Shown: in pieces, positions 1,280-24,700 of the stretch
Numbering within the stretch: position 1 is the first letter of the stretch
Layout of the letters: the number at the start of each line of letters is the position of its first letter
DNA from: an uncultured Parasphingopyxis sp.
GTDB taxonomy: Bacteria > Pseudomonadota > Alphaproteobacteria > Sphingomonadales > Sphingomonadaceae
Direction: 5' to 3'
NCBI RefSeq assembly: GCF_937129435.1
Contig: NZ_CAKZNF010000018.1
Span: forward strand, 24,020 to 56,019
Length of the DNA: 32,000 nucleotides
Made by a program: the position numbers and the translations under genes
Notes under the pieces: model-generated
Databases searched by the model: none
What the model saw: only the letters and a program-made list of their open reading frames with translations
Told to the model about the DNA's origin: nothing

Positions 1280-1413
1280 GGGCATTCTCCTTCGTTTCAG
1301 GTGATGCCCAGGCGATCGGCTGTCTTGGTCCGCGTTCCCCGATGGTGTCCCATCTCGAATCGCCAGTCGCGCGGACGGCGACCTTGTAGCAGATTACGAC
1401 CGATTCGGGAGGA

Positions 1414-10562: not shown

Positions 10563-11744
10563 CTAGAGAACCTCGAAAAGCCCCGCCGCGCCCATGCCGC
10601 CGCCGACGCACATGGTCACGACGACGTATTTGGCGCCGCGGCGCTTGCCCTCGATCAGCGCATGGCCGGTGCAACGCGCACCGGTCATGCCATACGGATG
10701 GCCGATCGAGATCGAGCCGCCATTGACGTTGAGCAGCTCGTCCGGAATGCCGAGCTTGTCGCGGCAGTAGAGCACCTGGACGGCGAAGGCCTCGTTCAGC
10801 TCCCAAAGGCCGATATCGTCGACGGAAAGATCGAAGCGTTCGAGCAGTTTCGGGATCGCGAAGACCGGGCCGATGCCCATCTCGTCGGGCTCGGTTCCGG
10901 CGACGGCCATGCCGACATATCGGCCGAGCGGCGTCAGCCCCTTTTTCTCGGCGGTCGAGGCTTCCATGACGACGCAGGCCGAGGAACCGTCGGAAAGCTG
11001 CGAGGCGTTACCGGCGGTGATCGTGCCGCCTTCGCCGATCACCGGCTGGAGCGACTGCAAGCCTTCGAGCGTGGTCGAGGGGCGGTTGCCCTCGTCCTTG
11101 GCGATGGTGACGGTTTCCTCGCTGGTTTCGCCCGTTTCCTTGTTCGTGTTGAGCTTGACCGTCGTCGTCTCGACGATCTCGTCGTCGAACTTGCCGGCCT
11201 CCTGCGCGGCGGCGGTCCGCTGCTGCGATTGCAACGAATATTCGTCCATCGCCTCGCGGCTGATGTCGTAGCGCTTGGCAACGACTTCGGCCGTTTGCAG
11301 CATCGGCATGTAGATATTGCCGTGCATCGCGATCAGCTCCGGATCGGGCATGACGCGCATTTCCTTGGTCTGCACGAGGCTGATCGATTCGAGCCCGCCG
11401 GCGACCACGCAGTCCATCCGGTCGACGATCACCTGCTTCGCTGCCGTCGCGATCGTCATCAGCCCCGAAGAGCATTGCCGGTCCATCGACATACCCGCAA
11501 CCGAGGTCGGCAGCCCGGCCCGCAAGGCGATCTGACGCGCGACATTGGTGCCGGTCGTGCCCTGCTGCAGCGCCGCACCCATGATGCAGTCATCGACCTC
11601 GCCGCCCTCGATCCCGGCGCGCTCGACCGCCGCCTTGACCGCGAAGCTGCCGAGCGTCGGCCCCTTGGTATTGTTGAACGCGCCGCGATAGGCCTTGCCG
11701 ATCGGCGTACGGGCGGTGGAAACGATAACGGCGTCACGGGACAT
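10563..11744 (-). CDS. Acetyl-CoA C-acyltransferase (thiolase)
   Basis: Start [21 protein letters not shown] at the ATG 11742-11744 with AAAGGAA RBS. Active-site motifs [27 protein letters not shown] and MCVGGGMG. Confidence 0.9.
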
Positions 11745-11801
11745 TGTGGGTGTTCCTTTCAGTGATTCTGTTCTGTTTTGCGGTTTGTCTAGCGAGGTAT
11801 T

Positions 11802-12256
11802 TTGACTCACGCAAAGACGCTAAGACGCAAAATCCGTATGATTGTTCACGATGCGCTTGATGCCTTCCTTGAAGGTGGCAGCGCCGAAATTCATCAAGAG
11901 ACCCAGGGGCAGGTCTAGAAGCCGCAGATAGGTCAGCACCTGCTTGCCATGAACCGCTTGCAGGCGTTCGACGGATTTGAGTTCGATCAGAAGCCGGTCT
12001 TCGACCAGAATATCAGCGCGAAACCCTTCCTGGATCGCCAGTCCCTTGAAATGGATCCCGACCGGCTTTTGCCGGTCGATTTTCAAACCACGTTCTTCCA
12101 GTTCGAAGGCCAACACCGCTTCATAGACCGATTCCAGCAGTCCCGGCCCCAATTCCTTGTGGATGTGAAACCCCGCATCGACCGCAATCCGCGCAAGCTC
12201 TTCGACAGAATGGCTCACGCTTATTCTTTGCGTCTTCGCGTCTTCGCGTGAGTCAA
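11802..12256 (-). mobile_element. 455-bp cassette: GxxExxY nuclease-fold gene bounded by 30-bp terminal inverted repeats, inserted between maoC-like and thiolase genes
   Basis: Left 11802-11831 is TTGACTCACGCAAAGACGCTAAGACGCAAA. Right 12227-12256 is TTTGCGTCTTCGCGTCTTCGCGTGAGTCAA (28/30 complementary). Each arm contains a tandem GCGAAGAC-like unit. G+C inside is visibly lower than in the flanks. Confidence 0.5.
11820..12218 (-). CDS. GxxExxY protein (PD-(D/E)XK nuclease superfamily)
   Basis: 132 aa, GTG start. ...HKELGPGLLESVYEAVLAFELEERGLKIDRQKPVGIHFKG...FRADILVEDRLLIELKSVERL...HGKQVLTYLRLLDLPLGLLMNFG carries the GxxExxY motif and the D...ExK core. Its stop codon lies inside the left inverted repeat. 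Confidence 0.85.
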   Translation of the reverse strand: MSHSVEELARIAVDAGFHIHKELGPGLLESVYEAVLAFELEERGLKIDRQKPVGIHFKGLAIQEGFRADILVEDRLLIELKSVERLQAVHGKQVLTYLRLLDLPLGLLMNFGAATFKEGIKRIVNNHTDFAS

Positions 12257-12260
12257 TTCC

Positions 12261-12719
12261 TCAAACGAAAAACTGCGAGATCCATTCGGCAATCAGGGCG
12301 GGCTTGTCCTCGCCCTCGATCTCGACGGAAAATTCGAGCGTCTGCTGATACTGGCCGGGGCGCTTTTCGGTGAGCTCGAGCAGCTTGAAATGGCCGCGCA
12401 CGCGCTTGCCGGATTTTACCGGCGCGAGGAAACGCGTTTTGTTGCCGCCATAGTTGACGCCCATCTTCACGCCTTCGGGACGCGGGCAATCGCTCTCCGC
12501 CATCATGCGCGGGAAGAGCGACAGCGTCAGAAAGCCGTGCGCGATCGTCTGGCCGAAGGGCGTCATCTTCGCGGCTTCGGGATTGACGTGGATGAACTGG
12601 TGATCGCCGGTTGCGTCGGCAAACTTGTCGATCATCTCCTGATCGACGGTGATCCATTCGGACGTGCCGAGCGTTTCGCCCACCTTGCCCATCATTTCGT
12701 CGATGCTGATCGTTGCCAT
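12261..12719 (-). CDS. MaoC-like (R)-specific enoyl-CoA hydratase / hot-dog dehydratase
   Basis: Start MATISIDEMMGKVGE at the ATG 12717-12719 preceded by GAGAGGAG. ...FADATGDHQFIHVNPEAAKMTPFGQTIAHGFLTLSL is the MaoC hydratase motif. The track start at 12749 lies inside the repeat element and is rejected. Confidence 0.85.
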   Translation of the reverse strand: MATISIDEMMGKVGETLGTSEWITVDQEMIDKFADATGDHQFIHVNPEAAKMTPFGQTIAHGFLTLSLFPRMMAESDCPRPEGVKMGVNYGGNKTRFLAPVKSGKRVRGHFKLLELTEKRPGQYQQTLEFSVEIEGEDKPALIAEWISQFFV

Positions 12720-12744
12720 CCCGTCGCTCCTCTCGTTTCGGATC

Positions 12745-12833
12745 GTCATGCTGAACTTGTTTCAGCATCCACCTTTCATTCCGCATGGTCCGTGCGATGG
12801 GAGAGGTGGACCCTGAAACAAGTTCAGGGTGAC
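12745..12833. repeat. Gene-less inverted doublet of hairpin family A (REPIN-like)
   Basis: GTCATGCTGAACTTGTTTCAGCATCCACCT (12745-12774) and AGGTGGACCCTGAAACAAGTTCAGGGTGAC (12804-12833), separated by about 30 nt. Each arm is itself an 8-bp stem with a 5-nt loop. It is the same hairpin that flanks the GIY-YIG gene at 15952 and 16379. Confidence 0.85.
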
Positions 12834-12891
12834 GGTGAAGCCTCACCTTATCGTTATGCGGCGTGTCCGCAAGGCGTTATAGGGCCGCGCC

Positions 12892-15951: not shown

Positions 15952-16379
15952 GTCATGCTGAACTTGTTTCAGCATCCATATGCCTCATCCTATATGGCAG
16001 CGTGTGACCGAACCCAAACAGCCCTGCGTCTACATCCTCGCCAAGCGGAAACACGGCGCGCTCTACATCGGCGTAACGTCAAATCTGACAAAGCGGCTGT
16101 ATGAACATCGCACCGGAGCAGTACCCGGTCATGCGAAACGGCATTCCATCAAATGCCTCGTCCATTTCGAGCAGTTCGAAGATATGCCCAGCGCGATCGC
16201 CCGCGAGAAGCAGCTGAAAAACTGGCATCGCGACTGGAAATGCAACCTTATCGAACGCGACAATCCCGATTGGCACGACATTGCGGCGGATTGGCGGTTC
16301 GATCCGGTTTGAGGTGCGGCCGCCGTTCCATAGCCATGAGCGGTGAGGCATATGGATGCTGAAACAAGTTCAGCATGAC
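15952..16379 (+). mobile_element. 428-bp cassette: GIY-YIG nuclease gene bounded by perfect 33-bp inverted repeats of hairpin family A
   Basis: 15952-15984 GTCATGCTGAACTTGTTTCAGCATCCATATGCC is the exact reverse complement of 16347-16379. Nothing lies between the arms except the 110-aa ORF. G+C is lower than in the flanks. It sits in the convergent putA/mscS intergenic region. Confidence 0.5.
15980..16312 (+). CDS. GIY-YIG nuclease family protein (UPF0213/YhbQ-like)
   Basis: 110 aa. PCVYILAKRKHGALYIGVTSNLTKRLYEHR...AREKQLKNWHRDWK contains the GIY-YIG, Arg and Glu core motifs. The ATG lies inside the left repeat (CATATG). Confidence 0.85.
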   Translation: MPHPIWQRVTEPKQPCVYILAKRKHGALYIGVTSNLTKRLYEHRTGAVPGHAKRHSIKCLVHFEQFEDMPSAIAREKQLKNWHRDWKCNLIERDNPDWHDIAADWRFDPV

Positions 16380-23944: not shown

Positions 23945-24700
23945 TCATTCGGCCGGTTGGGCGACGCCTTTCACGAATCGTTCGACATGCGGATTACCGC
24001 AATCTTCGAGCGTGTCGACCGGCCCCGTCCAGATGATCTCGCCCTCGTAGAGCATCGCCACGCGGTGCGCGACACGGCGGGCCGATTTCATGTCGTGGGT
24101 GATCGTCACTGCCGTCACGCCGAGATCCTCGACCAGCTCGACGATCAGGTCGTTGATCACGCTGGCGCGGATGGGATCGAGCCCCGTGGTCGGCTCGTCG
24201 AAGAAGATGATCTCGGGGCGCGGCGCGATGGCGCGGGCGAGCGCGACTCGCTTCTGCATCCCGCCCGACAGCTCGGCCGGATAGAGATCGAGCACATCGC
24301 CGCCCAGATTGACGCGTTCGAGATTTTCGCGCGCGATATCGCGCATCTCGCGCTTCCGCAGCATACGTCCCTGTGTCAGCGAGAAGGTGACATTGCGCCA
24401 GACGGGCAGCGAATCGAACAGCGCGCCGCCCTGAAACAGCATGCCGAATTTCGTGCGGATCCGTTCGCGGTCGGCGGCGCGCATCGCGGTCATGTCCTCG
24501 CCATCGACACGGATCGTTCCGGCATCGGGTTCGACCAGCCCGAGAATGCATTTGAGCATCACCGACTTGCCCGACCCCGAACCGCCGATGATGGCAAGCG
24601 ATTCGCCCGGTGCGACGGAGAGCGTGACATCGCGCAGCACCTGATTGCTGCCGAACCGCTTGGCGACATGGTCGAGCGCGAGCTTGGGCGTCTCCGCCAT
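23945..24700 (-). CDS. mlaF: ABC transporter ATP-binding protein, MlaF-like
   Basis: Internal ATG 24698-24700 overlaps the mlaE stop (TGATG). MAETPKLALDHVAKRFGSNQVLRDV..., Walker A GGSGSGKS, signature LSGGMQKRVALARA, Walker B IIFFDEPTTGLD. The track ORF to 25000 is an out-of-frame N-terminal extension into mlaE. Confidence 0.9.
   Translation of the reverse strand: MAETPKLALDHVAKRFGSNQVLRDVTLSVAPGESLAIIGGSGSGKSVMLKCILGLVEPDAGTIRVDGEDMTAMRAADRERIRTKFGMLFQGGALFDSLPVWRNVTFSLTQGRMLRKREMRDIARENLERVNLGGDVLDLYPAELSGGMQKRVALARAIAPRPEIIFFDEPTTGLDPIRASVINDLIVELVEDLGVTAVTITHDMKSARRVAHRVAMLYEGEIIWTGPVDTLEDCGNPHVERFVKGVAQPAE

Follow-up and report, generated by a model that had tools for sequence, protein, structure and literature searches.

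We analysed a 32,000-nucleotide stretch of DNA from an uncultured Parasphingopyxis sp. (positions 24,020 to 56,019 of contig NZ_CAKZNF010000018.1; the whole stretch is called the window below) and describe here a 455-bp cassette at positions 11,802 to 12,256 of it, in which a single gene of the GxxExxY family lies between inverted repeats (the arms) and which is itself lodged between a maoC-like gene and a thiolase gene. A sequence-only reading of the window had singled out this cassette and, together with a GIY-YIG cassette 4 kb away, had taken it to suggest a class of minimal, selfish, inverted-repeat-bounded elements with a single nuclease gene. The parts of the locus, listed in the direction of the genes, are as follows.

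12261 to 12719, minus strand: maoC-like dehydratase gene (PF01575), the upstream host gene; 152 amino acids as in its homologues, with a longer open reading frame (ORF) call reaching 12749
12226 to 12256, minus strand: upstream arm (in gene orientation), TTGACTCA followed by CGCGAAG-A-CGCGAAG-A-CGCAAAG
12248 to 12242, 12240 to 12234 and 12232 to 12226, minus strand: heptamers of the upstream arm, CGCGAAG, CGCGAAG and CGCAAAG respectively
11820 to 12218, minus strand: GxxExxY gene, 132 amino acids from a GTG start, predicted to encode a minimal PD-(D/E)XK nuclease
11802 to 11832, minus strand: downstream arm, reverse-complementary to the upstream one; its plus-strand units are CGCAAAG, CGCTAAG and CGCAAAA
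10563 to 11744, minus strand: thiolase gene (PF00108/PF02803), the downstream host gene

The anatomy given in the sequence-only reading was borne out. The inverted arms (11802-11831 and 12227-12256) are 30 nt each and complementary at 28 of 30 positions (93%), with tandem GCGAAGAC-type units in both (at 11811/11819 and 12230/12238). The GxxExxY ORF fills the interior and has its stop codon in the left repeat, the G+C content is 0.53-0.57 within the cassette versus 0.62-0.68 in the flanks, and the whole sits between the maoC stop at 12261 and the thiolase start at 11744, with maoC, GxxExxY and thiolase all on the minus strand. The upstream arm has its first base 4 nt past the maoC stop codon and its last base 7 nt ahead of the GTG start; the downstream arm holds the last four GxxExxY codons and the TAG stop (11820-11822) and is followed by 57 nt before the thiolase ATG. 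When up to three mismatches are allowed, the 30-mer of the arms is found at just these two sites in the window, and none of 100 dinucleotide-preserving shuffles contains a match. In a near-identical short-read contig (L001, 524-554) the upstream arm has three GCGAAGAC units versus two in the window, the downstream arm being the same; this additional unit reveals slippage, the number of units varying between close strains. No consensus for a sigma-70-like promoter or an intrinsic terminator was found within or adjoining the cassette. Transcription of the maoC-thiolase operon most likely reads through it, maoC being a co-oriented, well-expressed host gene and the presumed source of transcription for a promoterless cassette.

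The GxxExxY protein matches PF13366 (PDDEXK_3) with 132.1 bits (cut-off 22) over profile positions 2-117 of 117, and TIGR04256 (GxxExxY), likewise along the entire profile, with 133.5 bits (cut-off 35), in agreement with the earlier family assignment. Its catalytic residues are intact: G26-L-L-E29-S-V-Y32, D69 and E79-L-K81, together the pattern GxxE...D...ExK, are invariant across 30 homologues. The AlphaFold2 model has a pLDDT of 92.8, the C-terminal residues encoded by the arm being disordered, and Foldseek returned solely PD-(D/E)XK matches to it (Cas4 SSO0001, a lambda-type exonuclease, Hjc and a splicing endonuclease) with TM scores of about 0.45-0.55; since these matches are weak and generic, no specific function can be transferred from them. 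A sequence search of the PDB gave no match to the protein even at E <= 10, searches against PADLOC gave marginal matches only and against PHROGs none, and no defence or phage family claims it. Neither did Pfam or NCBIfam yield a transposase match, the PD-(D/E)XK protein being the sole ORF of the cassette. Comparison of three orthologues gave a saturated synonymous divergence (pS 0.69-0.81), a non-synonymous divergence (pN) of 0.12-0.15 and a dN/dS of about 0.07, so that strong purifying selection preserves the protein. With 18,813 clusters (50% identity) matching at E <= 0.001, the family is a very large one; in a published survey the function of PF13366 is listed as unknown and multiple transfers between divisions are noted (PMC3424549). 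Some members (P0361, P0366, P0367 and others) are 270-295 amino acids long and have two tandem GxxExxY domains.

The inverted repeat is a hallmark of the GxxExxY family and not a local accident. We compared 80 GxxExxY loci chosen by protein similarity alone (57-81% identity, one genome per species) from Sphingomonadales, Chloroflexi, Verrucomicrobia, Flavobacteriaceae, delta-proteobacteria, Nitrospinota, Acidobacteria and Hydrogenedentota. In about 85% of these loci TCA(CGCGAAGN)x2-4 stands upstream and its reverse complement downstream, which upholds the association of repeat and gene raised in the sequence-only reading, and the same arm type flanks GxxExxY genes in at least eight bacterial phyla. 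The register of gene and arms is also shared across these loci: as a rule 1-10 nt separate the upstream arm from the start codon, and the downstream arm overlaps the end of the reading frame or follows it within about 10 nt. In most homologues the reading frame continues through the downstream arm, and proteins from many taxa end in ...NNHTDFASSRLRVNQ and often have ...SREDAKNAKG... near the N-terminus. The C-terminal FASSRLRVNQ is the translated downstream arm (TTT GCG TCT TCG CGT CTT CGC GTG AAC CAA) and SREDAKNAKG the translated upstream arm. The heptamer comes in lineage-specific variants that are always matched between the two arms (CACAAAG/CTTTGTG, CGCGGAG/CTCCGCG, CACTAAG/CTTAGTG).

This concerted change of the arms was quantified in 75 protein-selected elements, anchored on the outer two units. 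Across them 86% of cells are paired, versus 27-56% when the partner column is slid, and 15 of 23 pairs have changed on both sides, values reached by none of 500 shuffles. By position, pairing amounts to 96% in the heptamer cores and 84% in the spacers and ends. Around distant homologues (34-46% identity) the arms keep this design but are made up of different units (CACGGAA or CGCAGAT). Two proposals for smaller hairpins were dropped, a d(GCGAAGC) mini-hairpin because the spacer base varies, and local CGCG-AAGN-CGCG hairpins because the CACAAAG variants are unable to form them.

The cassettes have a clear position bias. Neighbouring genes were called with a simple gene caller based on third-codon-position G+C (GC3), whose output for L004-L006 agrees with the supplied gene calls. 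In 61 of 66 loci (61 vs 5, p = 3e-13) the upstream neighbour points the same way as the cassette, and the upstream arm starts a median of 20 nt past the stop codon of this neighbour. These upstream neighbours are housekeeping genes, among them those for NadB (L-aspartate oxidase), Dxs, Lpd (dihydrolipoyl dehydrogenase), LysC (aspartokinase) and HemB. The 71 loci fall into about 40 insertion-site groups, the largest of which, behind a 2-oxoacid oxidoreductase gene, is common to ten genomes from several sphingomonad genera, and the ORF has a G+C content on average 8 points below that of its host locus (lower in 69 of 70 loci). No target-site duplication was detected, direct repeats of 1-6 nt flanking 180 elements being no commoner than in shuffled pairings. 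Of the spacers that hold gene-less hairpins, 2 of 37 are divergent against about 6 expected, as judged with the crude GC3-based gene caller.

The copy in the window can be followed in related genera. The order maoC-GxxExxY-thiolase recurs in Novosphingopyxis and in Alterisphingorhabdus coralli, where identity to the window is 80-81% for GxxExxY, 73-80% for MaoC and 81-85% for thiolase. Both retain the arms and the TAG stop within the arm, and the outer arm ends differ in a compensatory manner between genera (TTGAC/GTCAA vs GGTTTC/GAAACC). By contrast, the maoC|thiolase junction is empty in Parasphingopyxis marina (55 nt), whose thiolase, at 89% identity, is the most window-like among named relatives, and in a Sphingopyxis sp. 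(43 nt); neither empty junction contains an arm-type hairpin, and their spacers are too diverged for a base-by-base alignment to fix the insertion boundaries. The sequence-only reading had proposed looking in relatives for an empty site and a target duplication, of which the first exists and the second does not. It had also allowed that the gene might prove to be an ancient fixture carried by all relatives with flank-like composition; the empty relatives, together with the low G+C of the ORF, speak otherwise. With the site occupied in the window, Novosphingopyxis and Alterisphingorhabdus and empty in P. marina and Sphingopyxis, the presence of the cassette is patchy, reflecting either an old insertion with later loss or repeated invasion of the same site. 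An unrelated 178-amino-acid gene with a weak match to the CMD family occupies the maoC|thiolase spacer in another relative (L089, 4435-4971), and this junction may be a recurrent insertion point. On the evidence of a site shared by three genera, flank-like divergence and a dN/dS of about 0.07, the window copy appears to be old rather than a recent selfish insertion. More generally the GxxExxY genes seem to behave as stable residents: one homologue, of which public data contain many identical copies, lay in the same context at all 10 places shown (24 contigs read).

Most copies of the arms contain no gene. The 5-kb flanks of the genome loci hold 28 ORF-less arm pairs with loops of 20-180 nt, usually of the heptamer variant of the resident cassette. 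In metagenome contigs sampled by the arm motif alone, and hence unbiased as to cargo, 50 of 63 arm pairs formed short hairpins, 6 enclosed a GxxExxY gene and 6 enclosed something else, a ratio of gene-less hairpins to GxxExxY cassettes of about 8:1. Three independent arm-bounded units enclose toxin-antitoxin pairs, HicA/HicB in L036 (3895-4627) and a PIN protein with its antitoxin in L157 (1182-2042) and L018 (3273-4196). The arm motif also occurs in 49 stretches of a viral collection (IMG/VR), with up to 17 arms per 9.6 kb; four of the contigs (L229, L255, L252 and L248) have very dense arm-type hairpins between small genes and no GxxExxY gene, and two contigs classed as viral (L216 and L242), in which a conserved 16S rRNA motif is present, may be bacterial. 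Because the hairpins are dense in phage-like contigs that lack GxxExxY relatives, they can evidently spread or persist without a linked GxxExxY gene. The minimal single-nuclease unit of the sequence-only reading stands insofar as the arms flank GxxExxY genes, and falls short insofar as most arm copies are gene-less and some hold toxin-antitoxin pairs; for the latter reason we take the repeat as the primary unit, with the nuclease gene as one of its passengers or as its helper.

Two further observations bear on how such units change. Where sister Sphingopyxis genomes have gene-less hairpins at one site, all units of one arm show the change CGC->CAC and those of the other arm GCG->GTG; the loops are unrelated and the flanks conserved. 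It looks as if hairpins had been replaced, or homogenised from a template, rather than altered by separate point mutations. Arm-bounded units also form tandem arrays, with spacers of about 52 nt between the units, in L018 (1651-3295), L036 (3895-5478), L045 (4601-4961) and L014 (4742-5628), and the likeness of the spacers within an array suggests local amplification of whole units plus flank.

The second cassette of the window, also noted in the sequence-only reading, is real, and a gene-less palindrome of its arm type lies between it and the GxxExxY cassette.

15952 to 16379, plus strand: GIY-YIG cassette, with an ORF at 15980-16312 and arms at 15952-15998 and 16333-16379
12744 to 12834, no strand assigned: gene-less palindrome of the GIY-YIG arm type, with arms at 12744-12788 and 12790-12834 (45 nt, 78% complementary)

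The arms of the GIY-YIG cassette are 47 nt long, 89% complementary and contain the hairpin ATGCTGAACTTGTTTCAGCAT. The cassette is absent from a near-identical Parasphingopyxis metagenome-assembled genome (L006) whose flanks are 99% identical to the window and whose putA/MscS spacer has about 30 nt of differing sequence in its place; as far as this comparison goes, it is a recent gain or loss. The gene-less palindrome lies in the divergent putA-maoC spacer, overlapping the longest maoC ORF call. Arms of the GTCATGCTGAACTTGTTTCAGCATCC type bound GIY-YIG homologues elsewhere (L263 1873-2360, L264 1951-2427 and L265 1940-2471), after cysS in Tardibacter, between ruvB and ruvA in Parasphingorhabdus, and in Sphingomonas radiodurans, and further gene-less palindromes adjoin these homologues. 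The GIY-YIG cassettes are a parallel family with arms unlike those of GxxExxY. GIY-YIG homologues in three other genera lie at different sites but are bounded by the conserved arms of their family, and the idea of a class therefore extends to two nuclease folds with a separate palindrome each; as a recent selfish insertion, the window copy of GxxExxY is not supported. Elsewhere in the window, 1299-1380 (minus strand) is a ZMP/ZTP riboswitch (Rfam RF01750, 61 bits, gathering score 39).

We give about even odds to the reading that this 455-bp cassette belongs to a widespread, apparently undescribed palindromic element with its own predicted PD-(D/E)XK nuclease, and is a long-resident copy of that element. 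The nuclease would recognise the heptamer-repeat stem, as hairpin, cruciform or duplex, and cut at or near it; host repair would then copy, replace or homogenise elements, with the arms serving as homology, and the gene-bearing copy may act as a single-copy helper of the gene-less ones, in the manner of the RAYT gene for REP/REPIN sequences. Several observations weigh against this reading. The window contains no second copy of the GxxExxY arms, and among the 10 places shown for the one homologue with many public copies there was no recent multi-site copy of the gene. The toxin-antitoxin cargo shows that the arms are not tied to the GxxExxY gene, and the viral collection has hardly any GxxExxY relatives despite its dense arms. 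No signature in the sequences ties the nuclease mechanistically to the arms, and to our knowledge a lone PD-(D/E)XK nuclease is not a known transposase. A broader proposal, which we advance tentatively as less likely than not, is that GxxExxY proteins are dedicated nucleases of cross-phylum heptamer-repeat palindromes whose arms replicate, ferry toxin-antitoxin pairs, invade phages and settle behind the stop codons of housekeeping genes, the GIY-YIG cassettes doing likewise.

The alternative that retains most weight, though we regard it as unlikely, is that the hairpins came first, as an independent REP-like element that is moved by another agent or that hosts and phages retain for use at RNA ends or as terminators. 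GxxExxY and toxin-antitoxin genes would then be small selfish genes homing into hairpin loops, with the nuclease cutting gene-less hairpins and being copied in by way of the roughly 30-bp arms. The excess of hairpins over GxxExxY cassettes, their density in phage-like contigs without the gene and the use of the same arms around toxin-antitoxin pairs would all follow, and the different hairpin variants carried by sister genomes at one site fit replacement through arm homology. However, the register of gene and arms is fixed and no loop remnants were seen, which fits co-evolution as one unit, and the GxxExxY copies are stable and single-site rather than spreading. Furthermore, because the empty maoC|thiolase junctions have no hairpin, arms and gene would have arrived together at the occupied site.

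It is rather improbable, in our judgement, that the cassette works at the RNA level in the manner of a 23S rRNA intervening sequence, with RNase III cutting the stem of about 30 bp, uncoupling maoC from thiolase mRNA and limiting GxxExxY translation, so that arm conservation would mirror RNA structure rather than DNA mobility. The arms do pair in the minimum-energy fold of the sense-strand RNA (11780-12280, z = -5.9), the cassettes almost always run in the direction of the upstream gene and lack a promoter consensus, and changes on both sides of the arms keep pairing. In the arms, 44 intermediates are G.U and 30 are A.C, an excess of G.U that is not significant (p = 0.13). Rfam 15 gave no match at the cassette, either in a gathering scan of the window or in an E-value scan of the cassette, and a gene-less hairpin gave sub-threshold, generic miRNA-precursor matches only. 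Against an RNA-level module, gene-less hairpins and phage copies need no ORF, and RNA structure alone leaves the 40 insertion sites, the empty sites and the low G+C without explanation. Nor does the location agree. A regular-expression search of the fetched loci with conserved rRNA motifs, three from 23S and one from 16S, gave no 23S match; the 16S motif alone was matched, in two contigs of the viral collection and away from the arms, and no fetched locus has an element in a 23S gene. Intervening sequences with an ORF are known from 23S rRNA of Leptospira and Coxiella (S23p; PMC4990558). They resemble the cassette in having a small ORF between inverted repeats able to form a long stem inside a transcription unit, with co-transcription presumed for the cassette, but the host of the cassette is an mRNA operon and not an rRNA helix, and its ORF encodes a nuclease and not a four-helix bundle; lying between two protein-coding genes, the cassette was rejected as a member of that group. 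A role at the RNA level would in any case be compatible with, and not opposed to, a DNA-level element.

Very little probability attaches to an ordinary host gene with a local regulatory palindrome, fixed in the lineage and never mobile: the site shared by three genera, the flank-like divergence, the strong purifying selection and the constant context (10 of 10 places) of one homologue would suit it, but it is contradicted by arms of the same type in many phyla and at about 40 sites, by the empty junctions (including that of the closest named relative) and by the gene-less copies, as well as by the consistently low G+C. We find it equally hard to credit that the arms are recombination sites of a putative site-specific recombinase acting on integron-like cassettes: promoterless, co-oriented small ORFs, toxin-antitoxin cargo, palindromic boundaries and occasional arrays with regular spacers recall integron gene cassettes, but the arms lie on both sides of each gene rather than as one attC after it, most cassettes are solitary at the about 40 conserved chromosomal sites, and the called genes beside the arrays in L018 and L036 yielded no Pfam integrase domain, nor was an attI found, the genes with Pfam matches being housekeeping genes (e.g. 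for a gyrase B-type subunit and diacylglycerol kinase).

Among known systems the closest parallel is that of REP/REPIN sequences, whose RAYT gene (for the REP-associated tyrosine transposase) is present once, is inherited vertically and likewise lies between inverted repeats (PMC3116915, PMC2817692, bioRxiv 10.1101/2022.05.22.493013). Both have a low-copy, mostly vertically inherited gene between inverted palindromic repeats, the same repeat dispersed as many gene-less intergenic copies (for GxxExxY at the level of the family), no target-site duplication, long residence and genome-specific repeat variants. They differ in that the GxxExxY enzyme is a predicted PD-(D/E)XK nuclease of 125-130 amino acids and not an HUH/Y1 transposase, and in that the GxxExxY arms consist of 2-4 tandem heptamers and also enclose toxin-antitoxin pairs. 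Membership of the REPIN-RAYT group fails on the defining RAYT gene (an IS200/IS605-like Y1 HUH enzyme), since the enclosed gene is PD-(D/E)XK. Unlike RAYT genes, GxxExxY elements would also spread horizontally, as their proteins are about 60-80% identical across phyla and their arms occur in phage contigs.

A classical insertion sequence or transposon was likewise rejected, there being no DDE, HUH, serine or tyrosine transposase and no target-site duplication. Miniature inverted-repeat transposable elements and their parent insertion sequences share with the GxxExxY element terminal inverted repeats and an excess of short gene-less derivatives over gene-bearing copies, but the GxxExxY element differs from them in lacking those transposases and a target duplication and in its fixed position just behind the stop codon of a co-oriented gene. 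Free-standing homing endonuclease genes are exemplified by the seg and mob type of phage T4 and, with a PD-(D/E)XK fold, by I-Ssp6803I. As in those, a single small nuclease gene lies between host genes with no transposase, its presence at the same site is patchy, with occupied and empty sites among relatives, and its base composition is atypical. Homing endonuclease genes, in contrast, have no terminal inverted repeats or gene-less derivatives and usually decay once fixed, whereas GxxExxY is under strong purifying selection.

Our search of the full-text literature, whose coverage leaves out most subscription journals, found no description of the GxxExxY arms or of the GIY-YIG hairpin architecture. 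The arms define a family of repetitive palindromes that extends from Chloroflexi to Proteobacteria and into phage contigs, and the cassettes split core-metabolism operons. For annotation, it follows that proteins of the family routinely carry spurious N- and C-terminal extensions translated from the arms (SREDAKNAKG and FASSRLRVNQ). GxxExxY/PDDEXK_3, a very large family of unknown function, gains a candidate substrate in its own flanking heptamer-repeat palindrome, and should the nuclease indeed act there, bacteria would possess a second type of domesticated partnership between repeat and enzyme, with a restriction-enzyme-like fold in place of the HUH transposase.

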